64,000 nt of DNA, from contig JAUYIT010000008.1 in the NCBI GenBank assembly GCA_030688315.1, positions 21,240 to 85,239 on the forward strand. Reading direction: 5' to 3'. The stretch is from Candidatus Komeilibacteria bacterium (lineage in GTDB: Bacteria; Patescibacteriota; Patescibacteriia; UBA1558; UBA10009). The notes under the pieces were generated by a model that did not search any database, was not told the DNA's origin, and was given only the letters and a program-made list of their open reading frames with translations. The position numbers were made by a program, and so were the translations under genes. Positions 13,865 through 30,963 of the stretch are shown here, one piece after another (the first letter of the stretch is position 1; each line of letters starts with the position of its first letter).

Positions 13865-13987
13865 GAAAAGAGGCCAAAAGATCCAAGAACCAATAAATTA
13901 AAAAATCAAAATAACTAAGTTCTTTGGTTCTTTTATGTTTAAATTTTATCTTGTATTCTATGAGCATTATGCTATAATTTACGCAAT

Positions 13988-15181: not shown

Positions 15182-15194
15182 TTAGAAATAATAA

Positions 15195-15224
15195 AATCGC
15201 TCTAAGAAATTAAAGCGATTTTTT
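15195..15224. terminator. bidirectional terminator between tyrS (+) and ruvC (-)
   Basis: Stem aatcgct/agcgatt followed by tttt. Confidence 0.45.
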
Positions 15225-15232
15225 GATTTAAA

Positions 15233-15715
15233 TTATTTTGTGGAATTGGCGCAGGTAATGGCAATGGCCAAAGCATCGGCGGCATCATCGGGTTTGGGTA
15301 CGGCGTTAAGGTTCAGCATGACTTTAACCATTTGTCCGACCTGATTTTTGTCAGCCGCGCCATAAGAAGTAAGCGCCTGTTTAACTTGTAAAGGCGTATA
15401 TTCAAAAATCGGCAATTTGTTTTGGGCAATGGTCATTAATACTACGCCTCTGGCTTGTCCCACCATTAAAGCGGTTTTAACGTTTTTGCAAAAAAACAGT
15501 TCTTCCACGCTTACGGAACTTGGTTTATATTTTTTGATGATTTTTTTGAGTTCGTTATGCAGGCTTTCCAGGCGTTTGATAAAATCGGTTTTAGCGGAAG
15601 TAACAATGGACCCGCAGGCCACAAATTTTAAATCACCTGCCTCCTTGTTGATGACGCCCCAGCCGGTATCGGCAATGCCCGGGTCAATGCCCAGGATTAT
15701 TTTAGAGGTCGGCAT
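15233..15715 (-). CDS. ruvC: crossover junction endodeoxyribonuclease RuvC
   Basis: ILGIDPGIADTGWGV N-terminus and overall RuvC fold. Confidence 0.85.
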   Translation of the reverse strand: MPTSKIILGIDPGIADTGWGVINKEAGDLKFVACGSIVTSAKTDFIKRLESLHNELKKIIKKYKPSSVSVEELFFCKNVKTALMVGQARGVVLMTIAQNKLPIFEYTPLQVKQALTSYGAADKNQVGQMVKVMLNLNAVPKPDDAADALAIAITCANSTK

Positions 15716-16427
15716 TGGAATAAAAATTACTGACGTCGTCTAACGCTTCCAAGTCATCAAAGAATTTTAAAATGGTTTCCTCGTTGCTGACTTTGACGGA
15801 ATCCTTGGCCACGTATTCAATATTTGATTCCAAAATAGGAATATTGAGTTCGGCAATTTTCTTTTTGATGTTTTCAAATTGATCGGGCGCGGTATAAACG
15901 GTTACGCCGCCATCTCCGAGCTCAGCTTGGCTGTCGGTTTTAATATCCAAAGCGCCGGCGTCAATCAAGGCCAGCTCTTCATCATCGGTCAGTTTTTCCT
16001 TGTCCAAAGTAATTACGCCCCGGTGGTCAAACATCCACATAGTAGCGCCGGGGCCGGCCAAATTACCGCCGTATTTATTTAAAACATGTTTAACTTCCGA
16101 AGCGGCGCGGTTTTTGTTGTCGGTCACAATTTCCATCACCAAGGCCAAACCGGCCGGGCCGTAGGCCTCGTAAATAATTTCTTCCATTTGTTCACCGCCC
16201 AGTTCACCAGTGCCTTTTTTAACGGCGCGATCAATGTTTTCTTTGGGCAAACGGAATTCTTTGGCCTTATCAATGGCCATGCGTAATTTAAAGTTGGTTT
16301 CGGGGTCGCCACCGCTTCTGGCCGCTACCGCAATAACGTTGGCCAGCTTGGTAAAATTGGCTGATTTTTTGGCGTCAACGCCTTCTTTTCTGCGTTTGGT
16401 TGTTGCCCACTTGGAATGTCCGGACAT
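15702..16427 (-). CDS. yebC: YebC/PmpR family DNA-binding regulator
   Basis: MSGHSKWATTKRRK N-terminus, diagnostic of YebC. Confidence 0.85.
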   Translation of the reverse strand: MSGHSKWATTKRRKEGVDAKKSANFTKLANVIAVAARSGGDPETNFKLRMAIDKAKEFRLPKENIDRAVKKGTGELGGEQMEEIIYEAYGPAGLALVMEIVTDNKNRAASEVKHVLNKYGGNLAGPGATMWMFDHRGVITLDKEKLTDDEELALIDAGALDIKTDSQAELGDGGVTVYTAPDQFENIKKKIAELNIPILESNIEYVAKDSVKVSNEETILKFFDDLEALDDVSNFYSNADL

Positions 16428-16508
16428 ATATTTATGGATTATTTTATTTGATAAGCCAAGTTTAGCCCCTTTAATTGAAAAAATCAAGATTTTAATATTA
16501 TATTTTTT

Positions 16509-17687
16509 TTAAACTAAGGAGCTTAAAAATTTATCAGCGCTCATTACCCTAACGCCCGATTTAAGCTGATCCACGCCCGACGTTTTAACAATCTGGTAAA
16601 CCTGAGCCAGCTTCATTTTTTCCTTAAAGTAGATTAAGTTGGGAGAAACTTCCATCGTTTGGCTTTTAACCTCAACGGCAAACCACGGCTGTTTTTTGAT
16701 CGTTACCAAAAAATCAACCTCTCGGCCGGCCGTATCCCTAATAAACCACAGCTCGGCTTGGTAGCCCTGGCTATCAGCCAGATAGTGGACAAATTTTAAC
16801 AAATGGGAAGCAACCATGTTTTCCAATTTGGCCGCTTCGTTTGGCAATTCCGACCAGTCCCACAGATAAAGCTTGGGCTGTTTGCGCAATGATTTTATGG
16901 CTTGTTGATGAAAAGGCAAAATACGGAAGTGATAGTAGAACTTTTCCAAAATATCCAGCCAAGATGTTACGGTTTTATGGGTAACCCGCAGATCTTCTCT
17001 TAGTGAAGACGCGGAAAAAAGCGAACCGACTTTAGCCGGCAATAGCTCCGCCAGAATTTGCAAAGCCGATAAATCATGGATTTTTTCCAGATCGCGGATA
17101 TCTTCTTTAACTAAGCGGTCTAAGCGTTCGCGGTAAAAGCGTCGGGCAATTGTCGCGTTTTGGCTTAAAAACGGTTCAGGGAAGCCGCCGAATTCCCATA
17201 AAGCCGCAAATGCTTCCTTAACTTCAGCCGTGCTTAAAAAGGTTAATTCTTTAAATTCAGAAATGGTCAGAGGTTTTTTATTTATGGCTTCCGCTACCGA
17301 AAAAGGATGCAGACGGTAATAATGGTATCTGCCTAACAGCGAATCCCCGCCCCGGCGATAAATATCCAAACGGGAACTGCCGGTAACTAAGATTTTTAAT
17401 CGCTCTTTGTGAACATCATACAATCCTTTTAAATAATTTTTCCAGCGTTTAAATTTATGGATTTCATCAAAAACTATTAAGGGCTCGTTTAAAGGCAGGG
17501 TATTGCCAATAATTAGTTGGCGATGTTCGCGGTTATCCCAGTTAAGATAAGTGAAACCGGCATAGTTTTTTTGGCCCAAATTTTTAGCTAAAGTGGTTTT
17601 ACCCACTTGCCTGGGTCCGCCTATAAAAACCATCTTTTGATTAAGATCGGCTAGTATATTATCGTTCAAATAACGGTTAATAATCAT
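16509..17687 (-). CDS. AAA ATPase, COG1373-like (AAA_14 + DUF4143)
   Basis: Walker A GGPRQVGKTTLA; paralog of 37612..38745. Confidence 0.6.
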   Translation of the reverse strand: MIINRYLNDNILADLNQKMVFIGGPRQVGKTTLAKNLGQKNYAGFTYLNWDNREHRQLIIGNTLPLNEPLIVFDEIHKFKRWKNYLKGLYDVHKERLKILVTGSSRLDIYRRGGDSLLGRYHYYRLHPFSVAEAINKKPLTISEFKELTFLSTAEVKEAFAALWEFGGFPEPFLSQNATIARRFYRERLDRLVKEDIRDLEKIHDLSALQILAELLPAKVGSLFSASSLREDLRVTHKTVTSWLDILEKFYYHFRILPFHQQAIKSLRKQPKLYLWDWSELPNEAAKLENMVASHLLKFVHYLADSQGYQAELWFIRDTAGREVDFLVTIKKQPWFAVEVKSQTMEVSPNLIYFKEKMKLAQVYQIVKTSGVDQLKSGVRVMSADKFLSSLV

Positions 17688-17721
17688 AATTTAGCTAATG
17701 TTAGTAATTAAGTTATATAGA

Positions 17722-17776
17722 AAATTATACCATAGTATAATTTTTTGTCAAACAAATTATACCATAGTATAATTTT
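17722..17776. promoter_or_regulatory. two perfect 23-bp direct repeats (aaattataccatagtataatttt), each near-palindromic, spaced 32 bp, in a divergent promoter region
   Basis: Copies at 17722..17744 and 17754..17776. Inner motif TTATAC-CATAG-TATAA. Confidence 0.5.
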
Positions 17777-17854
17777 CCATACCAATCGTTAATTAAGATT
17801 TTCGCTTAAAAACAAGGATTTTGGTATAATAGAGGCAATAAATTAACCATTTTT

Positions 17855-18865
17855 ATGAAATTAAACGAACAAAACTATCTTAAATCAATTGAGCTATTGG
17901 GCGAGCAAATTAAGCAGTCATATTTTGAAGCTGGGCGGCTAAAATTACCAGCTTCTTATCGTCAGATTAATAAAATCGCCGTGTTTGGCATGGGTGGATC
18001 GCAACTAGGCACGGATTTGATCAATAACTTATTTAGCCAGGAATTAAAGGTCCCGATTATTCAAATCAGAGATTATAGCGTGCCCGGGTTTGTTGACGCT
18101 AATACTTTGGTTTTATTACTTAGTTATTCCGGCACCACCGAAGAAGTTTTGGCCGTCAGTCAAAAATTATCGAGCCGTAATAAGGTTGTGGTTATCACGG
18201 TTGGCGGAAAGTTATCTGAAGTTTCCAAGAAAAATCATTGGCCCATGTATCAGTTTGATCCGCGGTACAATCCTTCGGGTCAGCCGCGGATGGGCACCGG
18301 TTATTTGGTCGGTTCGGTCATGGCGATTTTGAAAAAACTGAATTTGCTGGCCATTAATGATTCAACCGCCAACCAAATGATTGTTGGTGCTAAGCTGACT
18401 TCAGCTGTAAAACTTCAGGCCAAAAAATTGGCGAAATCCTTGAAAGGCAAAACACCGATCATCATTGGCGCTGAGCATTTATTTGGCAACGCCCACATTA
18501 TGACCAATCAGATTAATGAATCGTCAAAACAAAGGTGCTATTACTTTGCTTTGCCCGAGCTCAACCATCATTTATTGGAAGGATTGTCTTTCCCCTCCAC
18601 CACCAAAAAGAATCTGGTTTTTGTTTTTCTGAATTCTAAAAATTATTTTGCCCGCAACAAAAAACGCTTTGCTTTAACCGAACAGGTGGTTAACAAGCAG
18701 GGCATTGGTTCGGTTAAAATTGATGTGGGCGGCAATAAAGTTCAGGAAGCTATTAAATTATTGGGTCTGGGGGGCTTGCTTTCCTACGAACTGACCAAGA
18801 TCAATAAGGTTGAACCGGATCAGATTCCCTGGGTAAATTATTTTAAAGAACAGTTAGGAAAATAA
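17855..18865 (+). CDS. SIS-domain bifunctional phosphoglucose/phosphomannose isomerase (archaeal type)
   Basis: Translation with a tandem SIS architecture (..VFGMGGSQLGTDL..). Confidence 0.6.
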   Translation: MKLNEQNYLKSIELLGEQIKQSYFEAGRLKLPASYRQINKIAVFGMGGSQLGTDLINNLFSQELKVPIIQIRDYSVPGFVDANTLVLLLSYSGTTEEVLAVSQKLSSRNKVVVITVGGKLSEVSKKNHWPMYQFDPRYNPSGQPRMGTGYLVGSVMAILKKLNLLAINDSTANQMIVGAKLTSAVKLQAKKLAKSLKGKTPIIIGAEHLFGNAHIMTNQINESSKQRCYYFALPELNHHLLEGLSFPSTTKKNLVFVFLNSKNYFARNKKRFALTEQVVNKQGIGSVKIDVGGNKVQEAIKLLGLGGLLSYELTKINKVEPDQIPWVNYFKEQLGK

Positions 18866-18870
18866 AACGC

Positions 18871-20484
18871 ATGCATAGCAAATTTTGGCTGTTTTTCCGC
18901 CACGTTAACAGCAAATACTATTTTGATTATCTAGCTGTTTTTTTTATTGCCTTAATTTTATTCGGCTGGCTGCAAGCCGGTCCGACTTTGGCCGAGCCCG
19001 ATTCATTTTATCACGCCAAGATGGCGGTAATTATGTCGGAAGGCAAAGTTTTACAGCAATTCCCTTGGCTGCAAGAAACCAATTTGCCGGAACAGTATGT
19101 TAACCACCATTTTTTATACCACGCTCTACTGGTTCCTTTTGTTAACATGTTTGATCCTTTGGTGGGCGTTAAAGTGGCCACGGTTTTATTCGCTTCTCTG
19201 TTGGTTTTATCAATTTATTGGCTGTTTAAAAAGTTTGAAGTTAAATACCCCTTGGTTTTTGTTTTAATATTATTAACTATTTCGCCCTGGCTGTTTAGGG
19301 CTAGTTTGGTTAAAGCGCCGGCCATCAGTTTTATTTTTCTGCTCTGCGCGTTTTACTGTCTGGCGCATCAGCATTGGCTGCGTTTGTTTTTGCTTTCGTT
19401 TGCCGCGGTTTGGCTGTACGGTTCCTGGCCGGTTATTTTGGTTATGACCATTACTTATTTGATTGTTTATTGGCTGTTGGAAAAATATCGGCAGGAAGAA
19501 TCAATTTGGCATAAACTAAAAAATATTTTCCAATTAAATAAAAAAGTTCCCTGGCGCGGGTTGCTGTACGTGGTCGGTGGTTTAACGGCCGGCCTGGTTA
19601 TTAATCCCTATTTCCCGCAGAATTTAAAATTTTATTATCAGCAAATTATTGATATTGCCTTATTTAACTATCAGCATGTGATCAGCGTGGGTTCCGAGTG
19701 GTATCCTTATGATATTTATAAATTGATTGCCGACGCGCCTTTGATTATGTCTTTGCTGGTGGTTAGCGTGCTGTTGTTTATTTTAACCGTAAAAAAACAA
19801 TCCATTTATTCCTGGACCTGGGGTTTGCTAGCTGTGGCCTTTTTTATTTTAACCTTAAAATCACGGCGGCAGGTGGAATTTTTTACGCCCTTAACCGTAA
19901 TTTTTGCCGGCTTTACCTTTAACGATTATTTTAGAAAGCTTTCCCGCCTGCATTTGCAATTGTTGTTAAACGTGGCCTGGCAGGCAATTTTTGGTCTGGC
20001 TTTGATTTTAGTCGGACTAATTTTTATTTTTAAAATACCCGGCGATTTAAACAGAGCCAAATCCTATTTGGATAACGGTAAACCTTTAACTTATTATCAA
20101 CAAGCGTCCGCCTGGCTTACAGCCAACTCGCCCAAACAGGCCGTGGTTTTTAACGCCAACTGGTCCGATTTTCCCGCCCTGTTTTACCACAACAGTCATA
20201 ATTATTATCTGACCGGTTTGGATCCGACTTTTATGTATCAGCTGAACCCGGTTAAATACCAACAATACGTAGACATCACCTTGGGCAAGGTACAGCAAAA
20301 TTTAAAAAAAATCATCCAAGATGATTTTAAGGCCGATTATGTTTTATTTGACCATGAGCACTGGCTGTTGGAAAAACAATTAAAATACAGCGGCGATTTT
20401 ATCAAGGTTTATGAAGACAGCGAAGCTAAAATTTATCAGGTTAGGTCTGCGCCGGTGTTATTGCCGAGTTCATCAGGCGATTGA
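18871..20484 (+). CDS. large polytopic membrane protein, possible GT-C-fold glycosyltransferase
   Basis: 537 aa, more than 10 predicted TM helices, with an early periplasmic loop bearing ..AEPDSFYHAKMA.. No confident family. Confidence 0.3.
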   Translation: MHSKFWLFFRHVNSKYYFDYLAVFFIALILFGWLQAGPTLAEPDSFYHAKMAVIMSEGKVLQQFPWLQETNLPEQYVNHHFLYHALLVPFVNMFDPLVGVKVATVLFASLLVLSIYWLFKKFEVKYPLVFVLILLTISPWLFRASLVKAPAISFIFLLCAFYCLAHQHWLRLFLLSFAAVWLYGSWPVILVMTITYLIVYWLLEKYRQEESIWHKLKNIFQLNKKVPWRGLLYVVGGLTAGLVINPYFPQNLKFYYQQIIDIALFNYQHVISVGSEWYPYDIYKLIADAPLIMSLLVVSVLLFILTVKKQSIYSWTWGLLAVAFFILTLKSRRQVEFFTPLTVIFAGFTFNDYFRKLSRLHLQLLLNVAWQAIFGLALILVGLIFIFKIPGDLNRAKSYLDNGKPLTYYQQASAWLTANSPKQAVVFNANWSDFPALFYHNSHNYYLTGLDPTFMYQLNPVKYQQYVDITLGKVQQNLKKIIQDDFKADYVLFDHEHWLLEKQLKYSGDFIKVYEDSEAKIYQVRSAPVLLPSSSGD

Positions 20485-20495
20485 GGTTAATGAGT

Positions 20496-22496
20496 TCAGT
20501 TGACAAAAATTTCACCCAAGTCAATTATCGGCCAAAGCATTTCTTCTTTACTAATCTTCATGACGGCTGACCTTTGCCCGTCTAAAACTAAGGAGCCGCC
20601 GTAATCAAGGACCTGTAATTCCGCCCGGTAATTGCCCAAAGAAAGCTTATTTGGCAGTAAAAACCAGTAGTTGCTTTTAATAACCTGACCCGGTTGCCAT
20701 TCGGAAGTCGGGTACAGGCCGTAAGCCAGGGGATATAGTTTTTGGTGGACAACCTGATCTTGGTTGTTTTTTAAACTAAGTTTAAATTGATAATTTTTGT
20801 TTATTTTTTGATCAGCTTTAAAATACAAGGCCAGCGGAAAAATTCTTAAATTTTCGGCCGTCTGCTCGGTTTTAGGGAGCGGCGTGGAGCCCAGAAAAGT
20901 CAGGAGCTGGTTCAGTTTTAGGTTTTGGCGGTTGGTGATTTTGGTTGTAGGCGCGTCAATTTGATAAAGCTCAAGGCCATCCCCCGCTTCTTTTTTAAAC
21001 AGCGCCAAAGTATCAATGATTTTGATTGCCTTAAAGCCGCGTTCGGCAATAATGTTTCTTAAATTGTCGTCGCCTTGGTCGTAGTATTTACTCCACATTT
21101 TATTATTCGGGAACTGAATTTGATATTCCAGCAAATCGCTAAAATCAACGGCCAGCGCCTCAGTCTCTTGAGGTAGGCGGTAATTAATGTGGGATAATTG
21201 CGTTTTGCCGATAAAAGCGTAGTGCAGGGAATAAATTTTTTCCCGGCCCGACAGATTGGTCAGCAATTCATAGGTGGCGGCCACGGCCTCCTGATCAGCC
21301 ACCGTTTCAATCAGCTCATGCCTGATTTGCCTAGCTTGCGCGTCATAAGTCGGGTTAGCTAGTTTGCCGATAAAGCCCGGCAACGGCCCCAGGGCCAGCA
21401 AACCGTAAACAGCGCTGACAATTAAAATCAGCTTAACTATGGCCCAATTATTTTTTAAGTAAAGCGCCAGTTTGGTTTTGACTTGTCCGGTTTGCAGATG
21501 GTCCAAAGAAAAAATCAGGGCAATAAAAAGCGGGGGCAATAATAAGCTCACATAATGAAGCTTGACTACAATCACGGCGTTGTTGGTTTGGCTTAAAATG
21601 AGCTGGGCAAAAATTGGCAGAGCCAAAAGCAGATATTTTGGCTTAAGCAGGCAAAAAAAGCCCGCCGGCAAAAATAGCAACGGGGCCAGCAACAAATTGC
21701 CCGGCGTTAGCAGGCGTTGTAAAACCAGCCAGGGTTTGGCAAAAAAATTTACGGCCAGTTGCAAAAAACTGTTGCCCAGCCAGCCGTAGTAAGTTAAAAA
21801 TTTAAATAGGCCGCTGGTGCTAAAATGAGCAACGATTTTTACGGCAATAATAAACCAGGTCGCGGCCAGCGCCATGGGCCAGATAATCCACTTTAGAGAT
21901 TTTTTGTCCATGATTGCTAGCGGACTAAACATGAACACGGCTAACGACACGTCTTCACGGATCAATAACGAGATAACAATAAAAAGCAAAAACCAGGGAA
22001 ATTTATCGCGCAGGTAAAAATAGAAAGCCCAGAAAATAGAAAAAATGGCAAAGGGCAAAAAATGGAACTCAAAAAGATTAATGTTTTGGACAAACGGATT
22101 TAACAGCCAGAGCAGGGCAATCAGCAAAGGCCAGCCACGCGTTAACCGGGTTTTAGCGATTAAAAACAAGGGCCAGGCCGATAAAGCCAAAATTGCTGTT
22201 TGTAAAATCAACAAAGTAATCGGATGCTGAAAAAAGTAATAGATGGGCAGCAGGCCAAGTAACAGTAGTTCCAAATGGTCGCCCAGATAGTATTGTTGAT
22301 GAAAAGTAAATTCAAACCAGCGGCCGTGGGCGGAATTAAACAGCACTTGATTGTAAATGGCCAGATCCAAACCGTTGTAGCCGAACTGCCAATATTTCCA
22401 AACGCAGATTGCTGAAAATACTAAAAAATATAAACCGATGGCCAGCCACAGGCATAAGCCGGGTTTATTGTTGATGAAATGGCGGATTTTTTTCAT
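20496..22496 (-). CDS. DUF2079 (COG3463) polytopic membrane protein, GT-C-like
   Basis: GLDLAIYNQVLFN..LGDHLE motifs resemble DUF2079. ATG at 22496 (MKKIRHF) avoids overlap with the pilin-like gene. Confidence 0.45.
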   Translation of the reverse strand: MKKIRHFINNKPGLCLWLAIGLYFLVFSAICVWKYWQFGYNGLDLAIYNQVLFNSAHGRWFEFTFHQQYYLGDHLELLLLGLLPIYYFFQHPITLLILQTAILALSAWPLFLIAKTRLTRGWPLLIALLWLLNPFVQNINLFEFHFLPFAIFSIFWAFYFYLRDKFPWFLLFIVISLLIREDVSLAVFMFSPLAIMDKKSLKWIIWPMALAATWFIIAVKIVAHFSTSGLFKFLTYYGWLGNSFLQLAVNFFAKPWLVLQRLLTPGNLLLAPLLFLPAGFFCLLKPKYLLLALPIFAQLILSQTNNAVIVVKLHYVSLLLPPLFIALIFSLDHLQTGQVKTKLALYLKNNWAIVKLILIVSAVYGLLALGPLPGFIGKLANPTYDAQARQIRHELIETVADQEAVAATYELLTNLSGREKIYSLHYAFIGKTQLSHINYRLPQETEALAVDFSDLLEYQIQFPNNKMWSKYYDQGDDNLRNIIAERGFKAIKIIDTLALFKKEAGDGLELYQIDAPTTKITNRQNLKLNQLLTFLGSTPLPKTEQTAENLRIFPLALYFKADQKINKNYQFKLSLKNNQDQVVHQKLYPLAYGLYPTSEWQPGQVIKSNYWFLLPNKLSLGNYRAELQVLDYGGSLVLDGQRSAVMKISKEEMLWPIIDLGEIFVN

Positions 22497-22522
22497 TGTT
22501 AACAAAAGGCCCCGACCGTCAT

Positions 22523-23119
22523 TTAATTTCTGGCGCACTCGTTTTTAATCGGCCCGCTTTTGCATTCATAGCTGTTGCCGTACCATTCCTGGCATTGTTC
22601 AGTATTATCACATTCTTGGTTAAAACTGCACCAACCCTCTTGGCACAACCAGCCCGAACCAAAATCCCCTAAACAGTCGACGTTGCGATTGCATTTGCCG
22701 CTGGGGTTGCCACCGGCGTTAAAATCGTAATAACCGCCGCTGTTGGTACTGCGCTGGGCTATGTTATCCACGTAAACAACTATTACCATGGAAGCGGCAA
22801 TAATGGTTACGCCGATGATGGAATTTTTAAGGCGTTTTTTGGCGTCTTCTATTTTGTCTTCTTCCCCGCCCGAACTCATCCACTGCCAGCCCGCGTAAAT
22901 AATGCTGATTAAAAAGAACAGACCCACCAAGGTCAGGGCGTAATTAATAAAATTTATAATAATGCGCTGGGGGGAGGCCTCGGTAGTGGCCAAACCGGCT
23001 TCGTTATTAGCGCGGTTAACACGATCCAAAATTCCGCCATCCTGCGCCAGAACTTTGGTCCAAGCCAACAGTAAAAGCGAGTTAACCGCCAGTCCCAAAT
23101 TTTTTATGAATTTAATCAT
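22523..23119 (-). CDS. VirB2/TrbC-like two-helix secreted protein paralog 1 (Cys-rich C-tail, 8 Cys)
   Basis: Signal peptide, then a helix, loop YAGWQWMSSGGEEDKIEDAKKRL, a second helix, and a Cys-rich tail. Confidence 0.6.
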   Translation of the reverse strand: MIKFIKNLGLAVNSLLLLAWTKVLAQDGGILDRVNRANNEAGLATTEASPQRIIINFINYALTLVGLFFLISIIYAGWQWMSSGGEEDKIEDAKKRLKNSIIGVTIIAASMVIVVYVDNIAQRSTNSGGYYDFNAGGNPSGKCNRNVDCLGDFGSGWLCQEGWCSFNQECDNTEQCQEWYGNSYECKSGPIKNECARN

Positions 23120-23121
23120 AT

Positions 23122-23500
23122 TTATAGATAACGATTATCCAAACCCACCTGCCAAAAATTCAGCACGAACAAAATCAAACTGTAGGCAATGGCAATAATA
23201 AAAAAGCCGATGACGGAGTTTTTAAGCCGGGTCTGGGCTTTTTCAATGGTGTCTTCGTTGCCGCCGGCCGTAATCCACTGAAAGCCGGAATAGATGATCA
23301 TAATTAAAAAGAAGATGCCCACAAAGGTTAAAACGTAGGCAATAATACCCAGCACCACCGTGATTTTGGTACCGGTCGCTGTGGTATCAAAACCCGACTG
23401 ATCGGCTAAACTCTTAAAACGATCCAAGGGCGTGGTTAAAGCCAAAACCGAAGACAAGGGGGTTAACAAAAGTAGATAAATGGCAATTAAAATTTTCATA
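23122..23500 (-). CDS. VirB2/TrbC-like paralog 2
   Basis: Loop YSGFQWITAGGNEDTIEKAQTRL. ATG at 23500 lies 1 nt after the stop of paralog 3. Confidence 0.6.
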
Positions 23501-23501
23501 C

Positions 23502-24335
23502 TTAAGGTTGACACTCGTTATTAACGCACCTGCCAGGGGCGCAGTCACCGTCATCTTGGCATTCCTTGCACTCGCCGTCTATGCAATATTTTACGTTGGG
23601 ATTACAGGAGGTTCGGCAGGCGCTATCGGCTAGGCAGATGCCCGTTCTTGGTCCGGTAAATTCCCAAAAGCATAGATTGGCAATACAAAGGCCTCTATCG
23701 TTAAAGTCCGGGCAGGGCGTATTTTCATAAAAACAGCAGGTTGCTTGGTTGGGGCAGGAGGCGTCTTCCGCGTCAATAATTATTCCGTCCTGACCATCGC
23801 AAACCCTCGGATTATTAACGCAGGCAAATCGGCCGTTGGCTCCGTCATTATTTAATTCGTCACAGCTGATTTGATATGGCTCCTCGCCCGTGGGCGGTGT
23901 TTCTATGCCGGTGCCAGGATCTTTTAGGAAGCGCTGGTCAAAATAGCTGTACAGGGCGTAGGTTAAAATAAAAGCCAGCAGGGTAATGGCCACGCCAATG
24001 ACGCCGTTTAAAATCCTTTTTTTTGCTTGTTCCACCTTTTCCTCGTTACCGCCGGCCGTCATCCACTGGAAACCGGAGTAAATGACCAGCCCCAAAAAAA
24101 ATAAACCGGTAAAGCTGATCACGGTCATAATGATCCGGCCCAGCAAAGTGTCAAAATAACTTTCATCGGACTGCAAATCCACGTTATAAGTGCCCTCGCG
24201 GCCGGCTTTATTTAAAAAATCCTGGTAGGTTTGAAAAGTACCGGGATTTTGGGCCAAAACAACATTGGCCACTAGCGCTACCGCGCTGACCGTTAAAATT
24301 AGCAGGCAGATTTTGATCAGGTTTTTTTTAGTCAT
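23502..24335 (-). CDS. VirB2/TrbC-like paralog 3 (long Cys-rich C-terminal ectodomain, 18 Cys)
   Basis: Loop YSGFQWMTAGGNEEKVEQAKKRI. The C-terminal 130 aa carry multiple CxxxC/CC motifs. Confidence 0.6.
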   Translation of the reverse strand: MTKKNLIKICLLILTVSAVALVANVVLAQNPGTFQTYQDFLNKAGREGTYNVDLQSDESYFDTLLGRIIMTVISFTGLFFLGLVIYSGFQWMTAGGNEEKVEQAKKRILNGVIGVAITLLAFILTYALYSYFDQRFLKDPGTGIETPPTGEEPYQISCDELNNDGANGRFACVNNPRVCDGQDGIIIDAEDASCPNQATCCFYENTPCPDFNDRGLCIANLCFWEFTGPRTGICLADSACRTSCNPNVKYCIDGECKECQDDGDCAPGRCVNNECQP

Positions 24336-24346
24336 TTAATTTGATT

Positions 24347-24955
24347 TTATTCACAGCTGTTGCGCCCGCCGATATTTTCGTTGCAGGTTTTGCCTTGCGG
24401 ACAGGCGGGACCGCGTTCTCTAAAACAAGTGCACCATTTGGCTTGGCCGTCTGCCGTTCTAAACGTTTCGCACATCGGCATATTAGCATCAAGGCAATCA
24501 GCGTTGCTTTGGCATTCATAATTAGCGTTATTTGCCGGCGCGTCAGCGCTTCCTCCTTGGGTAAAGATAAAGTTAAAAACGAGATTGGTAATAATGTAGG
24601 CAAAAAAGATCAGGCCAAAGCCCAGCGAGGCGTTTAAAATGCGTTTTTTGGATTCTTCCACTTTTTCCTCGTTACCACCGGCCGTCATCCACTGAAAGCC
24701 GGAATAGATAATTAAGGCCAAAAATAGTGCCCCCAAAAAGCCCAAAAAAATAGCGATCAACTGGCCAAAAGTGGTATCCAAAAACGTTTCGCTGGCCACA
24801 TCGTCGGTGTTATAAAAACCCGTTGAGGCAATGATGTTGATGGTACCGCCGTTATCTCCGCCAAAACCAATGGATTGGGCCATTAAAACGGCCGGGGAAA
24901 ATAAAACTACTACGGCGATAATCACGGTCAAAGTTTTGTAAAAAGTTTTAGTCAT
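24347..24955 (-). CDS. VirB2/TrbC-like paralog 4 (Cys-rich C-tail)
   Basis: Loop YSGFQWMTAGGNEEKVEESKKRI. Confidence 0.6.
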   Translation of the reverse strand: MTKTFYKTLTVIIAVVVLFSPAVLMAQSIGFGGDNGGTINIIASTGFYNTDDVASETFLDTTFGQLIAIFLGFLGALFLALIIYSGFQWMTAGGNEEKVEESKKRILNASLGFGLIFFAYIITNLVFNFIFTQGGSADAPANNANYECQSNADCLDANMPMCETFRTADGQAKWCTCFRERGPACPQGKTCNENIGGRNSCE

Positions 24956-24961
24956 ACTAAA

Positions 24962-25002
24962 CGGGATTGCTTCGCCCGCCGAATCGGCGGGATCGCAATG
25001 AC
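24962..25002. repeat. GC-rich palindromic element, second copy of the 9060..9178 family, between pilin-like paralogs 5 and 4
   Basis: cgggattgcttcg-cccgccgaatcggcggg-atcgcaatgac. It shares a 13-mer and a 9-mer with the dnaN-downstream element. Confidence 0.5.
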
Positions 25003-25006
25003 AGGA

Positions 25007-25387
25007 TTAGGCGGCGCCCAAGGTTTTACTGATAAACCAAGTGATAAAGAAGGCGGCCACAGTTACGGCCAAACCAACGATAGCGTTCATAATTCTGGTT
25101 TTGGCTCTGGTTACTTTTTCCTCTTCGCCGCCGGCCGTCATCCACTGGATGCCGGAAATAACAATGTAGATAAAAAAGATCGCGCCCACAAAACTTAAAA
25201 CAATGCTGATCAAAGTGCCGATGGTTTGGGGGATAGTATCAGAAGTACCGGCGCCGGCAGGGTAACCCGCTCCGTTAATGCCGGCGGCATCGTCAATTAA
25301 ACCAGAGTTGACCTGGGCCAAGGCAGTCAATGGCAAAATTAGGAAGTTAAGGTAAAGACCAATTAATATTTTTTTGACGTTTTTCAT
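25007..25387 (-). CDS. VirB2/TrbC-like paralog 5
   Basis: Loop ISGIQWMTAGGEEEKVTRAKTRI. Confidence 0.6.
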   Translation of the reverse strand: MKNVKKILIGLYLNFLILPLTALAQVNSGLIDDAAGINGAGYPAGAGTSDTIPQTIGTLISIVLSFVGAIFFIYIVISGIQWMTAGGEEEKVTRAKTRIMNAIVGLAVTVAAFFITWFISKTLGAA

Positions 25388-25402
25388 TTTATTGTTTGTT
25401 AA

Positions 25403-25981
25403 TTATGCATTCATTGGGCAGCATTTTTTGTTATTCGGACAGGTTTCATCGGTCGGCTCAATTCCTTCACCGCAGGCGTCTTCACATGAGTACCCCTCAT
25501 CAAGTGGACAGGTATAAGAGCCAGGGTCAACTTCATTTACACTCGGAGTAATCCGCATTCTGTCTACAATAAAGCTGGTTAAGGCATAGGACATCATTAC
25601 AATGCCCAAGCCGATGGCGGCGCGGATAATGCGTTCGCGGGCATGGGTAACCTTTTCCTCGTTGCCGCCGGCCGTCATCCACTGGATGCCGGAGTAAACC
25701 ACTAGGCCGAAAAATACCACGCCAAACACGGACAAAACCATGCCAATAACCTGACCGACTTTTTGGGCCAAGGTTTCCGCGCTAACAACAGTATTGGATC
25801 CGTAACCTGAAGGACCACCGCCCGCTTGCTCCAAAATCCATTTCTGACAATCTTGTAAGCTTTCGTTTGGGTCGCAGCTTTGCAAATTGGCAGCGGCATC
25901 CTGGGCTAAAGCCAAGCCGGGTAAAAATAAACTGGCAGCTAAAGTAAGGGATAATAAATAAAGTTTTATAAATTTTATCAT
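25403..25981 (-). CDS. VirB2/TrbC-like paralog 6 (Cys-containing N- and C-ectodomains)
   Basis: Loop YSGIQWMTAGGNEEKVTHARERI. Confidence 0.6.
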   Translation of the reverse strand: MIKFIKLYLLSLTLAASLFLPGLALAQDAAANLQSCDPNESLQDCQKWILEQAGGGPSGYGSNTVVSAETLAQKVGQVIGMVLSVFGVVFFGLVVYSGIQWMTAGGNEEKVTHARERIIRAAIGLGIVMMSYALTSFIVDRMRITPSVNEVDPGSYTCPLDEGYSCEDACGEGIEPTDETCPNNKKCCPMNA

Positions 25982-25987
25982 AAAAGT

Positions 25988-26428
25988 TTATTGGGGCAGG
26001 CCGGTGCCGATGCCCATGATTCTAAAGACCAAAAAGTTAATAAAAATATAGGACAAAAGAATAATAATAATGCCGATGGCGGCGCTTTCAATGTGTTTGA
26101 CCGCGTCATCAACCATTTGCTGGTTGCCCTTGGCCATCATCCAGGTAAAGCCGGAATAAATAACGATGACTAAAAAAATAACGCCCAAAAAAGCCAAAAA
26201 TAAATTGATGAACCGGCCGACATATTCGAAAACGGTTGGCGCCGGTTTATCGTCACTAAAAATATTTGAGTCCTTGGCGGTATCATCCAGGCGTTTAATG
26301 ATATCACCCACATTGTTGGCCCCCAAATCCTGCTGGGCGTAAATTAAGCCGTTGGGAATAACGGCTGTAAAGCCAAAAAAAGCCAGCAGGCAGGAGAGGG
26401 AAATAATTTTTGCAGTTAATATTTTCAT
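25988..26428 (-). CDS. VirB2/TrbC-like paralog 7 (divergent loop)
   Basis: Loop YSGFTWMMAKGNQQMVDDAVKHI. Start at MKILTAK. Confidence 0.5.
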   Translation of the reverse strand: MKILTAKIISLSCLLAFFGFTAVIPNGLIYAQQDLGANNVGDIIKRLDDTAKDSNIFSDDKPAPTVFEYVGRFINLFLAFLGVIFLVIVIYSGFTWMMAKGNQQMVDDAVKHIESAAIGIIIILLSYIFINFLVFRIMGIGTGLPQ

Positions 26429-26429
26429 C

Positions 26430-26912
26430 TTAAGGATTTTGGCTTTGCGAAGGAGGGTTGGCAATGCCAGCCAGTTGAAAAACCACAAAGTTAACCACCA
26501 GATAGGCGAAAATTATTACCAGCAAGCCCAAAGTGGCCTGGCGCAGGGTGCGGATCGCTTTATCGGCCCGCTCCTTGTTACCGCCGGCCGTCAGCCAAAC
26601 AATGCCGCCGTAAACCGTTAGGAGAAAAAAGACCAGGCCAACAATTTGCAGGCCAATAACCACAAATTCGCCGATAATGGCCGCGGTCGTAGGCGGGCTA
26701 TCTTGGGCATTTTCAGAAACGGCCCCGCTGTTTCGCGCGCCTTTATCAAGAGTTTTTTGGGCGCACTCAATGGCCGAGTCGGTGGGCAGGCATTCCAGGT
26801 CGTTCTGGGCTTGCGCCATTAAAAAATTAAATGGCAGAAAGAGAGCGAATAATAAAAATAGGGCGCAAATGCCCTTGATTATAAATTGTCCATGGTAACG
26901 GGCAATGGTCAT
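26430..26912 (-). CDS. VirB2/TrbC-like paralog 8
   Basis: Loop YGGIVWLTAGGNKERADKAIRTL. The N-terminal ectodomain has 2 Cys. Confidence 0.55.
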   Translation of the reverse strand: MTIARYHGQFIIKGICALFLLFALFLPFNFLMAQAQNDLECLPTDSAIECAQKTLDKGARNSGAVSENAQDSPPTTAAIIGEFVVIGLQIVGLVFFLLTVYGGIVWLTAGGNKERADKAIRTLRQATLGLLVIIFAYLVVNFVVFQLAGIANPPSQSQNP

Positions 26913-27131
26913 AAGCGACGTAGAGTGAGAGAAATAATAAAGCGAAGCTTTATTATTTCCGAACCGAGGAGCTTATATGTACTCATATATGGACTCGGAT
27001 GAGCAGGGCTTAAAATAGCCGTTTAATTATTTGAAGATACAGTTTAGACCTCAACCCCGAAGTAGACGCTCGCGTTTTGCTCGCGACACTTCGGGATTAC
27101 AATTTAAATTGTATCAATGAGTCAGTTATCC

Positions 27132-27566
27132 TTAATTAGCTACAGTCGCTTGTTGAAGGTTTTCGAGTACAAATCTGGCAATGGCGTAAGCCGATAAAAT
27201 CACAATCAAGCCAACGATGCCCGCTGAAATCAGCTTTTTGGCTTCACCGACTTTTTCCTCTTCACCGCCGGCTGTCATCCATTTAAAGCCGCCCAACAGG
27301 ATGATCACCACCGCGATTACGCCCAAAAATCCCAACAACACGTTTAAAATATCGGCAATGGTTTCCTTTAACGGTTTGGTGCCCAAATTGGTATCTGTCA
27401 AAGCATTGATGCCGAATTCATCGCCTTCGGGGTTAAAATTATCTCCTGCTACTCCTCCCTCATCATCTTGCGCCCAAACTTGTGTCCCAACCATGGCAAT
27501 GGGCATGGCTAAAGCCAACAACAGGCCAAAAACCACTAAGTTCTTTTTTAATAAGAATTTTTTCAT
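27132..27566 (-). CDS. VirB2/TrbC-like paralog 9 (acidic N-ectodomain)
   Basis: Loop LGGFKWMTAGGEEEKVGEAKKLI. Confidence 0.55.
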   Translation of the reverse strand: MKKFLLKKNLVVFGLLLALAMPIAMVGTQVWAQDDEGGVAGDNFNPEGDEFGINALTDTNLGTKPLKETIADILNVLLGFLGVIAVVIILLGGFKWMTAGGEEEKVGEAKKLISAGIVGLIVILSAYAIARFVLENLQQATVAN

Positions 27567-27691
27567 ACTTCACCCCCTTTCATTTACTGACGCCGCTTGG
27601 CTGCGACCCCAATAAACTACTTGTTTAATAATAACTCAATTTATTATACAATAATTTTATTTATTCCGCTATAAGTTAGCTGGGTATATCT

Positions 27692-28135
27692 TTATGAAAA
27701 GTTTAATGTTTCAAAGATCGCTCGCAGAATGGCGTAGCTGGAAAAAATAATCACCAGCCCGAGCGCGGCCCAAATCAGAGTATCTTTGCCCTTTTTGACT
27801 TTATCGGCCGCGCCGCCGGCCGTCATCCATTGAAGCCCGCCAATAACGAACATTAATAAAGCAATAACTCCGGTTACGCCCATAAAGCCAAAAATCAGGC
27901 GGGAGTACAGATCAGCCGGTGTTTTAATGTTTTCTCCTAAGGGGTTATCCAATTTAATGACGCCCGAGTTAGCGGCGCCTGCGTCCTCGCAGGTTTTATC
28001 GCAGGCCGCCTTGGCCACTTCGTCGGCCATAGTGCATTTCGATGCTTTGCAGGCCGCTACTGTTTCCGCCATAACTGGTCCGGCAAATAAAAATAGAGCA
28101 AGTAATAAAAAAGCAATTAGTCCTCTTTTATTCAT
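27692..28135 (-). CDS. VirB2/TrbC-like paralog 10 (Cys-containing N-ectodomain)
   Basis: Loop IGGLQWMTAGGAADKVKKGKDTL. Confidence 0.55.
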   Translation of the reverse strand: MNKRGLIAFLLLALFLFAGPVMAETVAACKASKCTMADEVAKAACDKTCEDAGAANSGVIKLDNPLGENIKTPADLYSRLIFGFMGVTGVIALLMFVIGGLQWMTAGGAADKVKKGKDTLIWAALGLVIIFSSYAILRAIFETLNFS

Positions 28136-28168
28136 ATCGGTAATTTTAAATTAAACTTTTAAAAGTTA

Positions 28169-28609
28169 TTATTTGGGGCAAACTTCGTTCCAGGCCTGGC
28201 CGGAAAAAATTCTGCCAACGCCTTTTTCGGTTGGCATAACGGAATTTTGGGGATCGGCCTGATTAAAAGTGAGTAACACCACCACCAAGTTAACAATCAG
28301 CCAGCTGGCTAAAATAATCATAATGCCGACGACGGTATGCACTAAAGCGTCTTTGGTTTTTTTAACTTTTTCACTGTCGCCCATGCTGGTTAGCCAGCCA
28401 AAGCCGTGCCAGACAAACAGTAATAAGGAAAGGCCGCCCACAATGCCCAAAATCCACCTAAAAACATTTAAGCCCAGTTGAACAAAATCGCACAGGCCGC
28501 AATTACCGTCTTTTGTGCATTCAGGCAGAAGATCTTGAGCATAAACCATGGCCGGGCTAAATATTGTTAGGCAGAGCAGTGCTATAATCAAGAACCTTTT
28601 GTTGTTCAT
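28169..28609 (-). CDS. VirB2/TrbC-like paralog 11 (most divergent)
   Basis: Loop WHGFGWLTSMGDSEKVKKTKDAL. Confidence 0.5.
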   Translation of the reverse strand: MNNKRFLIIALLCLTIFSPAMVYAQDLLPECTKDGNCGLCDFVQLGLNVFRWILGIVGGLSLLLFVWHGFGWLTSMGDSEKVKKTKDALVHTVVGIMIILASWLIVNLVVVLLTFNQADPQNSVMPTEKGVGRIFSGQAWNEVCPK

Positions 28610-28621
28610 TTGATTTGAGAA

Positions 28622-29995
28622 TTAGAGGGTTTGGTTGACCTTGTCAGCGGCGTTTTGTAACAGTTTAAGCTGGTTCGGCGTGGTAGCAAAATTTTTAATT
28701 AAATCTTTAAAAATCTCTTCCATTTTAAGTTGATCCTTGCCCTGATACCAGTTTTGAGCCGTTAAAGTTTGATTGGCAAAGACGCCGATTTCCGGGTCGT
28801 CTTTTTGGCCGTTGATTAAGGCCCTTAAAGCGGAGGGCTTTTTGGCTTGAGCTAGGTATTTAACCACTTGTTCTTGGCTGGCCGCAAAGTTAATAAAGCC
28901 CCAGGCCGCGTCAACATTGGCGGTTTTATGGCTGACCGTTTCCGCCCAGTAGTTGGTGTAATTAACGGCTTTGGTGGAGTTTATAATTTGCGGCAGAGGG
29001 GCCACGCCCAGATTGATTTTAGGAGCCCGGCCTTTAATTTCCCTTAATTGATAGGTATAGCCGAGGGTCATGCCTACTTTGCCGGACACAAAGGCGTCTA
29101 AAGAATTGGCCTGTTTGGCGTTCCAGGAATAAACCTGTTTTAAGGGGTCGGCAAAATCGGTGTAAAAATTTAAGGCGGCCAAACCGGGGTAGTAGCTGTC
29201 TTTGCCCGCGGCTTTATTGGCAAAAGCCACTCGTCCGTTTTTATCGGTCATTATCGTGCCGTTTTGGATCATTAATAAAGATACGATATCCACGGCATTA
29301 TTGATGTTATCGGCCGTACCCAGGGTAATGCCCGATTGGATTGGGTTGTTGTTAAGGTCAATTTGGCTGATTTTAGCGGCCGCTTCAGCCACTTCGTCCC
29401 AGTTGGTGGGGGCAGTGGCAATGCCGGCCTTATCCAGCAAATCGCGGTTGTATAGTAAAACCAAGGAATCCAAACTGTAGGGCAAGCCGTAAATTTTTCC
29501 GTTGCTGACCACGTCTTCATAAACCTGATCCACAAATTTGTTTTTTATGTCGGCGGCGCTAAAAATCGGCACGCCCCTAACCACGGTAGTCCGCTCCTCT
29601 TGCCCCAAGGTTTTGGTTATCTGCTCAAACGCCAGTTGGACTTGCGCGGGCTGGGGTGTAATAAAGCTTTGGTATTTGGTCAGCCAGCTGGCCGGTAAAC
29701 TGTAAATATCCGGACCGCGGTCGGCGGCCCAGGCCTCCAACAGTTTTTGCTCATATTCGCTAAAGCGGAAGCGGGTGTATTTGATTTTAATATTAGGATG
29801 CAGGGCTTGAAAATCCTTGATTAATGGCGCTAAAAAGGCCGGTTCGTCCCAGACGCCCCAGTAATTAAGCTGAATGGTTTTGGTTAAAGCGGCCGGCGCT
29901 TGTTTGGTCGGAAAAAGTTTGCAGGAAAAACCGCCGGTGGCCAGAATCACGGCCACAAGCAGGAGTAAAAGTTTTTTTTGAAAATGTTTAGTCAT
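28622..29995 (-). CDS. extracellular solute-binding protein (ABC-type SBP family 1-like) lipoprotein, orphan
   Basis: Signal/lipobox ..ATGGFSC and SBP-like translation. No permease or ATPase adjacent. It ends 12 nt before pilin-like paralog 11. Confidence 0.55.
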   Translation of the reverse strand: MTKHFQKKLLLLLVAVILATGGFSCKLFPTKQAPAALTKTIQLNYWGVWDEPAFLAPLIKDFQALHPNIKIKYTRFRFSEYEQKLLEAWAADRGPDIYSLPASWLTKYQSFITPQPAQVQLAFEQITKTLGQEERTTVVRGVPIFSAADIKNKFVDQVYEDVVSNGKIYGLPYSLDSLVLLYNRDLLDKAGIATAPTNWDEVAEAAAKISQIDLNNNPIQSGITLGTADNINNAVDIVSLLMIQNGTIMTDKNGRVAFANKAAGKDSYYPGLAALNFYTDFADPLKQVYSWNAKQANSLDAFVSGKVGMTLGYTYQLREIKGRAPKINLGVAPLPQIINSTKAVNYTNYWAETVSHKTANVDAAWGFINFAASQEQVVKYLAQAKKPSALRALINGQKDDPEIGVFANQTLTAQNWYQGKDQLKMEEIFKDLIKNFATTPNQLKLLQNAADKVNQTL

Positions 29996-30024
29996 GGTTG
30001 GTAAACCGCTAAACTGACAAATGC

Positions 30025-30903
30025 TTAAATTTTGAGGTTTTTAAGGTATTTTTTAAATTCCCCGTTAAGTTTGGGATGATCCAATGCTAGTTCCACATTG
30101 GCCTTAAGCCAACCCAAAATGGTGCCGGCATCATAAAGCTTGCCCTCTATTTTTTTGGCGTAAAATGGCCTTTTTTTGAGTAAAACGCTGATGGCGTCGG
30201 CCAGCCAAAGTTCACCGCCCTGGCCGGGCTTGGTTTTTTTTAAAATGGTAAAAATTTCCGGAGTTAAAATGTAACCGCCTACCAGTGCCAAATTGGATTT
30301 GGCTTTAGCTGGGCCGGGTTTTTCGGTAAAATCCTTGACTTTATAAACATTTTTTTCCACCCGTTGGCCGTCAATAATGCCATAGCGCTTAGTGTCTTCT
30401 TTACTTACTTCAATAACCGACAAAACCGGATTTTGGTATTTTTCGTAAACTTCAATCATCTGCTTAATCCAGCTTTTGCCGCCCTTGGTTTGCGGGATAA
30501 AAAATTCGTCGCCCCAAAATACGGCAAAGGGCTCATTGCCAATCAGTTGCTCGGCGTTTAAGACCGGGGTGCCATTGCCATAGCCGCCTTTTTGCCGGAT
30601 GTAAACAAAGTTAGCTAGGCGCGGGATTGACCGCAATTCCTTTAATAATTGGGGATTGGTGGATTTTTCCACCCATTTTTCCAGTTCCGGACTGCGGTCA
30701 AAGTGATCTTCCACGGCGCGTTTGTTGCCGCTGGTAACAAAAATTATTTCGGTAATACCTGCTTCGGCGCAGGCCTCCACAATGTATTGGATGGTGGGTT
30801 TATCAACCACCGGCAGCATTTCTTTGGGCTGGGCTTTGGTGGCTGGCAAAAAGCGGGTGCCAAACCCGGCCACGGGGATTATTGCTTTGCGGATTTTAGA
30901 CAT
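30025..30903 (-). CDS. galU: UTP--glucose-1-phosphate uridylyltransferase
   Basis: N-terminal AIIPVAGFGTRFLPATKAQPKEMLPVVDKP is canonical GalU. Confidence 0.85.
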   Translation of the reverse strand: MSKIRKAIIPVAGFGTRFLPATKAQPKEMLPVVDKPTIQYIVEACAEAGITEIIFVTSGNKRAVEDHFDRSPELEKWVEKSTNPQLLKELRSIPRLANFVYIRQKGGYGNGTPVLNAEQLIGNEPFAVFWGDEFFIPQTKGGKSWIKQMIEVYEKYQNPVLSVIEVSKEDTKRYGIIDGQRVEKNVYKVKDFTEKPGPAKAKSNLALVGGYILTPEIFTILKKTKPGQGGELWLADAISVLLKKRPFYAKKIEGKLYDAGTILGWLKANVELALDHPKLNGEFKKYLKNLKI

Positions 30904-30963
30904 ATGTTAGTAATATTATACAATCATTGTTTAACTTTCGCAACCATAAAAGGCCTTTTGTTG

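Follow-up and report, generated by a model that had tools for sequence, protein, structure and literature searches.

What do the eleven contiguous genes at positions 22523-28609 of a 64,000-nucleotide stretch of a Candidatus Komeilibacteria genome encode, and why are there eleven of them? This stretch (hereafter the window) had been read in a first-pass annotation, made from the sequence alone, as carrying a diversifying family of VirB2/TrbC-like surface proteins of a small-genome bacterium. The organism, itself uncultured, does belong to the Patescibacteria, which account for much of the diversity of uncultured bacteria and seem to live attached to host cells. [quoted passage not shown] Our analysis supports, on sequence evidence, the assignment of all eleven proteins to the VirB2/TrbC-related T4SS_pilin family. 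We put at about 0.72 the probability that the array is a member of the already described class of Patescibacteria pilin arrays and works in the manner proposed below.

The eleven same-strand open reading frames (ORFs) are real and lie on the minus strand, and a scan with a local hidden Markov model (HMM) of the pilin core identified no other such ORF in the window. Following transcription, we call them g01 to g11; g01 is paralog 11 (p11) of the first-pass annotation and g11 is paralog 1 (p01). The products follow one order: a hydrophobic signal-like segment, a small-x-A / Q motif, a variable N-region, a helix, a loop, a second helix and sometimes a C-tail. The loop between the hydrophobic helices is conserved as G(F/I)QWMTAGG(N/E)EEKV. 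Hydropathy, the alignment and a predicted structure for g03 bear out this architecture as first described. AlphaFold2 models g03 as a confident helix-turn-helix (helices 66-98 and 103-143; pLDDT ~90-95), and for p03 (g09) it predicts a confident core and a small beta-rich Cys module in the last ~40 residues.

PF18895 (T4SS_pilin) matches all eleven proteins, ten of them above the gathering score of 26.6 bits (30.7-49 bits) and g05 (p07) just under it (25.8 bits, E = 1.1e-5). PF04956 (TrbC/VirB2) is significant by E-value in five paralogs (E = 4e-5 to 7e-3), and its gathering score of 27.9 bits is reached by none of the eleven; the best is g03 with 24.2 bits (E = 3.8e-5), the others scoring 17-23. 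The VirB2/TrbC-type affiliation claimed earlier is thus upheld by the family searches. Among 64 database homologs of g03, PF18895 was found in all and PF04956 in 42 (E <= 1e-3; best 1.1e-8). These matches indicate that the PF18895 proteins here and PF04956 are related families, rather than strict membership of the latter. The NCBIfam model NF045849 matches nine of the ten paralogs scanned (p10 was left out) at E = 6e-10 to 3e-5 and 23-39 bits, below its cut-off of 40, and NCBI names the proteins identical to p03 and p09 "pilin [Candidatus Komeilibacteria bacterium]". Queried with sequence profiles of the paralog alignment and of the g03 family, the PDB returned no match, and no solved conjugative pilin (VirB2, TraA or TrbC-type) was recovered by fold or sequence search. 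The fold searches were uninformative, the hairpin being indistinguishable from any other helical hairpin.

The array begins with g01 (28169..28609; PF18895 49 bits), which has four Cys in its mature form and whose orthologs elsewhere frequently end in long tails rich in Cys (as much as 301 aa and 24 Cys). It is followed by g02 (27692..28135; PF18895 39.4 bits, PF04956 E = 8e-5), with four Cys in a putatively outside N-terminal region and 54-74% identity to its orthologs, and by g03 (27132..27566; PF18895 44.2 bits), a Cys-free canonical subunit. Next come g04 (26430..26912; 30.7 bits), with one Cys pair in the N-region, and g05 (25988..26428), which is matched by the local core HMM as well as by PF18895. 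In g06 (25403..25981; 35.4 bits) the N-region has two Cys and the C-terminal tail six, while g07 (25007..25387; 41.9 bits) is short and Cys-free, as it is in 7/7 orthologs. An 8-Cys C-terminal tail follows the core in g08 (24347..24955; 40 bits), and in g09 (23502..24335; 32.4 bits) the tail reaches 138-145 aa and 18 Cys. The last two genes are g10 (23122..23499; 32.3 bits), short and Cys-free, and g11 (22523..23119; 37.7 bits), with a core and an 8-Cys tail. All eleven are complete, each with its own predicted signal peptide.

The longest ORFs of g05 and g10 (p07 and p02) run into the genes upstream, to 26488 and 23514. Likelier starts are 26428, an ATG 1 nt past the g04 stop, and 23499; an independent assembly calls a 125-aa gene at the place of g10. 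The first-pass annotation had counted gaps of 1-12 nt at most junctions. This holds approximately for six of the ten, which are of 15 nt or less when the two made tight by the likelier starts are counted, and fails for the others, at 33, 51, 125 and 219 nt, of which the last two represent regulatory spacers that are conserved.

A scan for the conserved loop in species-representative genomes, with four close cores as query, gave 389 relatives, from which we fetched 78 loci. All 78 are in Patescibacteria-type genomes, and arrays of 6-12 genes, by the core HMM, are common in Komeili-, Magasanik-, Falkow- and Uhrbacteria. Many third-party metagenome-assembled genome records titled "uncultured Gammaproteobacteria bacterium" (e.g. 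L004, L007, L011 and L012) carry Patescibacteria-type arrays and synteny, and these labels look default or wrong. Six loci (L002-L006 and L013) share the gene order of the window, with galU, the array, a DUF2079 gene, a gene for a 537-aa membrane protein, PGI, YebC and RuvC, and together with it make up seven orthologous arrays.

Each window gene best matches the gene at the same position in these six loci, at 31-74% protein identity, a range at which synonymous sites are saturated. The positional ortholog always outscores every paralog of the same genome (at most 43% identity), and in a neighbour-joining analysis of the core the nearest neighbour of 68 of 76 genes lies in another genome. Identity within the array is low (mean 28.7%, maximum 42.9%, minimum 20.8%). 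By these comparisons the eleven genes are old duplicates that have been kept one-to-one as a fixed, specialised set. Such one-to-one orthology contradicts concerted evolution, shuffling or a variable-antigen repertoire, possibilities that the first-pass annotation had raised.

The position-specific character extends to the cysteines. Paralogs 1 to 11 contain 8, 0, 19, 8, 0, 8, 1, 3, 0, 4 and 5 Cys in total and, with those of the signal segment removed, 8, 0, 18, 8, 0, 8, 0, 2, 0, 4 and 4. Clusters of 8 to 18 Cys had been reported for five paralogs; they are present in p01, p03, p04 and p06, and paralog 10 has four. The mature counts are all even and the residues are restricted to the N-region and tail, with none in the core of the hairpin. 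Because of this parity and confinement, the Cys-rich tails look like disulfide-bonded extracellular modules, as had been suggested; that of g11, for instance, consists of two C-x5-C-x9-C-x4/8-C modules. The same trend holds among 436 related pilin-core proteins, where Cys makes up 9.9% of tails vs 0.13% of cores, 78 of 87 tails of at least 30 aa have four Cys or more, and the tail count is even in 45/49.

The regions predicted to be outside the cell are, as first described, much more variable than the core. Positional orthologs share 40-80% identity in the core, 22-43% in the N-regions and 6-26% in the tails, and among g09 orthologs the tails range from 148 to 325 aa and from 0 to 20 Cys. The presence of a tail is nonetheless fixed by position, and g03, g07 and g10 never have Cys in the orthologous arrays. 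Pfam assigned no family to the isolated Cys tails (resemblances to EB, WAP and granulin were non-significant), and among 1.84 billion representative proteins the p03 tail matched only its own Komeilibacteria ortholog. Loci of Magasanikbacteria type encode fusions of this N-terminal hairpin to ectodomains of 744-2050 aa with Big_5, TIG and fn3 domains. This was seen in three proteins scanned with Pfam, which we interpret from their domains as putative pilin-anchored adhesin fusions. ORFs of up to 3430 aa in other loci lie outside this domain scan. Giant Cys-rich proteins of ~600-3430 aa, with up to 130 Cys, are encoded in L018 (7095-9806 and 9845-15997) and L023 (7586-9820) and also in L022, L028, L040, L066 and L070; in Magasanikbacteria-type genomes their genes often form adjacent pairs. 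The distribution of Cys and of domains fits a hairpin with both termini out that would present disulfide-bonded or Ig-like modules outside the cell.

One gene stands apart by its non-coding surroundings. The spacer before g03 (27567..27691, minus strand) contains a promoter-like motif, ATTGTATAAT, with TTGTATAAT at 27643-27651, and a ribosome-binding site, AAAGGGGGTGAAGT. The ATTGTATAAT motif occurs at the same place in 7/7 orthologous arrays, and a G-rich ribosome-binding site ends the spacer in the window and in three of the six orthologs (L003, L005 and L013). Exact TTGTATAAT sites number only three in the window. One is part of a promoter-like site, TTGCGA-17-TATAAT (30915..30943, minus strand), upstream of galU and the best scorer in our promoter scan, which is a candidate start of a galU-SBP-g01-g02 transcription unit (SBP, solute-binding protein; see below). 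In L004, L005, L006 and L013, a perfect DnaA-box 9-mer, TTATCCACA, lies ~15-25 nt downstream of the TATAAT before g03. It is absent from this spacer in the window and in L003, and the window has no perfect copy anywhere, even near dnaA.

Directly 3' of g03 lies a long conserved RNA hairpin (27034..27115, minus strand), which could be a terminator, an attenuator or an mRNA stabiliser. The minimum free energy of the spacer is -67 kcal/mol (z = -5.7; -4.4 to -5.7 in the six orthologs), and RNAalifold predicts 24 pairs, 16 of them with a compensatory change in at least one species. A covariance model of the hairpin (50-bit hit) recovered it after the third gene in two more arrays, and no Rfam family was found in 22300-30100, the hairpin included. 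Across 46 arrays the median downstream folding energy is -25.5 kcal/mol for g03-like genes vs -12 to -21 for the other classes, and the general layout is that of g01- and g02-like genes, a spacer, a g03-like gene, a strong hairpin and the tightly packed remaining paralogs. A second, AT-rich perfect hairpin with a 14-bp stem (GGAAATAATAAAGC-TTCG-GCTTTATTATTTC; 26929..26960, minus strand) lies just before g04 in the window. The core of g03 orthologs has the highest identity of the array (78-80%), and g03 has 1797 homologs in the database vs 23 for g09. Given its lack of Cys, the promoter-like motif of its own, the covarying hairpin 3' of it and the widest conservation, g03 is likely the major subunit, the rest being putative minor subunits.

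The array is chromosomal and origin-proximal: the window holds rnpA, yidC, dnaA (6298-7671) and dnaN, and the array lies ~15 kb from dnaA. Its immediate upstream neighbours are galU and a gene for an extracellular SBP of the SBP_bac_1 family (28622..29995, minus strand; PF01547 110 bits), 12 nt upstream of g01. No ABC permease or ATPase gene adjoins the SBP gene. Of 49 related arrays, 25 have a homologous gene on the same strand no more than 1.5 kb upstream, a number that rises to 32 when the limit is set at 6 kb (for example at 2570-3946 in L008, 3768-5165 in L038 and 5306-6721 in L045), a linkage that may reflect inherited synteny or a functional link to uptake. At the other end, a gene for a polytopic DUF2079 membrane protein (20496..22538, minus strand; PF09852 208 bits) overlaps the end of g11 by 16 nt and, judging from this overlap, is probably translationally coupled to it. 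DUF2079 is directly downstream in 14/49 arrays, all close orthologs included; a literature search on it yielded no paper. The 537-aa membrane protein gene (18871-20484, plus strand) adjoins the DUF2079 gene, has no Pfam match and is kept in the closest relatives.

From these observations we propose how the array would work. Each product is probably exported by Sec, with its signal peptide cleaved after the small-x-A motif, and probably sits in the membrane as a helical hairpin whose N-region and C-tail face outwards and whose AGG(N/E) turn and basic residues are at the cytoplasmic face. The eleven genes are not interchangeable; each is held at its own position across species as part of an old set. 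The major structural subunit would likely be g03, and the other ten, mostly tightly packed or overlapping, would provide low-abundance minor subunits. Those of positions g01, g06, g08, g09 and g11 (across the clade) would carry fast-evolving, disulfide-rich C-terminal modules, displayed on a filament or on the cell surface for contact with host cells. Assembly would require a VirB4/VirB6-type machine encoded elsewhere in the genome.

A very different function, a repertoire of interchangeable variants diversified by gene conversion, of the kind proposed for Anaplasma and Bartonella VirB2 or for Neisseria pilE/pilS, had been suggested by the recurrence of a 35-nt block in the loop-coding DNA. 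The block was said to recur in at least six paralogs, and we find four copies within three mismatches (24037, 24663, 25116 and 25653); eight looser copies of the loop DNA are only 61-79% identical over 63-70 nt. That nucleotide identity exceeds what the protein requires is weakly true. The loop blocks of g06-g09 are mutually identical at 33-34 of 36 nt, and identical loop residues use the same codon in 66-68% of cases among paralogs of one genome (66.5% when set against orthologs), where codon usage predicts ~47%. Orthologs, too, reach 57.5%, and codon sharing between species is 58% observed vs 45% expected. The loop Thr is ACG in 7/9 window paralogs, a codon that makes up only 16% of Thr codons. 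Either short-tract homogenisation or a motif-specific codon preference may be behind this. The excess has not blurred orthology; being small (~36 nt) and partly shared across species, it points to constraint or codon preference rather than conversion. The fast evolution of tails and N-regions and the versatility towards host strains proposed in PMC12102498 would suit a repertoire, but the one-to-one orthology across seven species, in which no paralog is as close as the ortholog, and the fixed positions of the Cys tails speak strongly against it. The copies are full length, unlike silent cassettes of the pilE/pilS type, and no silent partial cassettes, inverted repeats or recombinase were found next to the array. 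We consider an interchangeable repertoire highly improbable.

The chance that the array is an artefact of assembly, or that it encodes holin-like or phage membrane proteins, is close to nil. A second assembly (Logan, run SRR13727534) does end at 24991, inside the spacer 24956-25006 between paralogs 4 and 5, and p05 and p06 have weak sub-threshold holin matches (E = 0.06-0.07). However, that assembly is identical to window positions 13502-24991, with 0 mismatches over 11,490 nt, and collinear arrays of 11-12 genes are present in five other species; the array is therefore not an assembly artefact, and neither are its repeat copies. These copies share only 21-43% protein identity, so they are not collapsed repeats, the context is one of conserved chromosomal housekeeping genes, and the PF18895 scores are far above the holin scores. 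Together, these results refute both ideas. Short-read assemblies seem prone to breaking within such arrays.

More weight must be given to the possibility, in our judgement still unlikely, that the hairpin is a mere membrane anchor. The proteins would then be surface-display or channel-associated proteins that never polymerise and do not depend on a T4SS, and may work with the co-transcribed SBP and DUF2079 proteins in host contact or nutrient capture. This would agree with the consistent linkage to SBP genes and the frequent linkage to DUF2079, with clade arrays that are unlinked to VirB4, with fold searches that cannot separate the hairpin from others, and with the hairpin ectodomains of 700-3400 aa in relatives, which could hardly belong to every subunit of a helical filament. 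Yet the near-invariant turn and the significant PF18895/PF04956 matches suggest that an interaction of the kind made by true VirB2 pilins is conserved, and one strongly signalled subunit with many coupled ones is the usual layout of filament systems. According to Wang 2023 (PMC10633639), Ca. Southlakia epibionticum ML1 has six essential pilins inside the T4SS cluster SEML1_0006-0019; this homologous array and the T4SS are both essential, and only in this species has an array been shown to be needed for epibiotic growth. The SBP synteny, moreover, could be merely an inherited gene order in one clade.

The reading of the array as a working pilin system has several points against it. No VirB4, VirB6, VirD4 or VirB11 gene is in the window, as the first-pass annotation had stated, and no T4SS machinery was found within 10 kb of the 78 related loci, in a search confined to the window and these flanks; of 13 large P-loop ORF candidates in the flanks, 11 were scanned and proved to be of SMC, EngA, DnaA, Mg-chelatase or AAA_14 type, with one lacking a Pfam match. 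No pilus has been observed: the literature consulted, including a 2025 review (PMC12857230) that repeats the description of arrays and speaks of a 'potential to elaborate' pili, gave no report of a VirB2-type pilus on any Patescibacteria cell. The topology and the cleavage of signal peptides are predictions from hydropathy and motifs, and the major-subunit role of g03 draws on sequence signals only. Finally, a generic scan of the region for promoters and terminators gave no more than expected from shuffled sequence; the useful promoter and hairpin signals came from cross-species comparison instead. We nevertheless prefer the pilin-array reading at the probability given above.

A bolder form of this reading, which we hold to be doubtful as a whole, is that of one ordered heteromeric organelle conserved across Komeili-, Magasanik-, Falkow- and Uhrbacteria. 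It would consist of a g03 filament and ten position-specific minor subunits, five of them with rapidly evolving disulfide-knotted adhesin modules, be uncoupled from VirB4 and be co-transcribed with the orphan SBP and DUF2079 genes. If so, it would be a host-attachment and nutrient-scavenging structure distinct from conjugative pili, in which a dedicated conserved RNA hairpin sets subunit stoichiometry and whose adhesins have been scaled up to Ig-like fusions of 700-3400 aa in relatives.

The remainder of the window holds features of other kinds. Two paralogous genes (16509-17687 and 37612-38745, both minus strand) encode AAA_14 plus DUF4143 ATPases, with a homolog near the array in L067. From ~39600 to 64000 the G+C content is 0.33-0.41, compared with 0.42-0.48 at 1-16 kb and 20-36 kb, and with its restriction-modification, recombinase and phage-like genes this part looks like an integrated element or defence island. 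It encodes a Schlafen/AlbA_2 protein (42787-44214), a DUF4238 protein (44480-45709), a ParB-N6/N4 methylase (48101-49444), a terminase-like ORF without Pfam hit (49853-51388), an Eco57I/TaqI-type methylase (52810-55077), a PLD-SNF2 helicase (56166-59360), a serine recombinase (59685-61016) and a SEC-C motif protein (62508-63959).

How does the array compare with known systems? With VirB2 of Agrobacterium, TrbC of RP4 and TraA of F, its products share a predicted cleaved leader, two hydrophobic helices linked by a short turn with basic residues, sequence similarity that is significant by E-value and, in the plain members, a small size of ~100 mature residues. Unlike these conjugative pilins, they score below the PF04956 cut-off and recover no solved pilin, the bacterium that carries them is a monoderm and has eleven paralogs in place of a single gene, some with long N-regions and Cys-rich tails, and no machinery, relaxase or coupling protein adjoins them. 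The pilin-like conjugal transfer proteins Mbov_0395 and ICE_MMCAP2_0565 (NF045849), from integrative and conjugative elements (ICEs) of mycoplasmas, are likewise small two-helix proteins of wall-less or monoderm bacteria; the window proteins differ in scoring below the 40-bit cut-off and in lacking an ICE context.

As in the VirB2 clusters of Anaplasma phagocytophilum and Bartonella, an analogy drawn in PMC12102498, several divergent paralogs stand in tandem in a host-dependent bacterium. The paralogs here, however, are ancient and positionally orthologous rather than lineage-specific expansions, and evidence of switching or conversion does not go beyond the weak 36-nt signal. Type IV pili and type II secretion pseudopili are built from sets of major plus minor pilins, some of the minor ones with extra adhesive domains. 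The resemblance to the array, with its one separately signalled subunit gene and tightly coupled low-identity paralogs, is a functional analogy only: type IV pilins have an unrelated fold and machinery, with a single N-terminal helix and a prepilin-peptidase site, neither of which is present here.

The closest counterparts are the VirB2-like arrays of the Patescibacteria themselves, and the suggestion of a previously undescribed surface system thus falls (PMC10633639, PMC12102498, PMC12857230). Applying PF18895 and PF04956 to 3,035 Patescibacteria genomes, Quinonero-Coronel et al. 2025 (PMC12102498) reported 441 arrays of 2-11 pilin genes in 383 assemblies, often near dnaA, in which identity averaged 25% and did not exceed 54%; the arrays were compared to the VirB2 paralogs of Bartonella and Anaplasma, and versatility towards different host strains was suggested. 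The 'Sec secreted array' of TM7x is another published Patescibacteria array of VirB2-like pilins. In PMC12102498 an array is defined as at least two PF18895/PF04956 genes, in tandem or one gene apart, in a Patescibacteria genome; the window has eleven contiguous ones, with a divergence (mean and maximum above) that fits the published values. Pfam family, phylum, tandem same-strand genes, low identity, proximity to dnaA and the absence of a relaxase nearby are all shared. The published size limit of 11 genes equals the size of this array, and with our HMM, related genomes show arrays of 12 genes. In S. epibionticum the array is part of a T4SS cluster, whereas that of the window is not next to virB4, and the window array differs from those published in following an SBP gene, preceding a DUF2079 gene and having several members with Cys-rich C-terminal modules. 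A term search of PMC12102498 found no mention of solute-binding proteins, pilin cysteines, orthology or a terminator, and the SBP link, Cys tails, positional orthology and g03 hairpin were not met in the available parts of PMC10633639 and PMC12857230 either; a Gracilibacteria metaproteome paper had no usable data on pilin abundance. The locus adds no new kind of system, and the comparison narrows the question. Its modest additions to the class are a parts list that stays fixed, a conserved RNA hairpin behind a candidate major subunit, and orphan Cys modules tied to particular positions. The fast-changing disulfide-rich tails and the giant adhesin fusions mark the subunits that probably touch the host, and these results provide concrete targets for proteomics, cryo-electron tomography and genetics in cultivable relatives.

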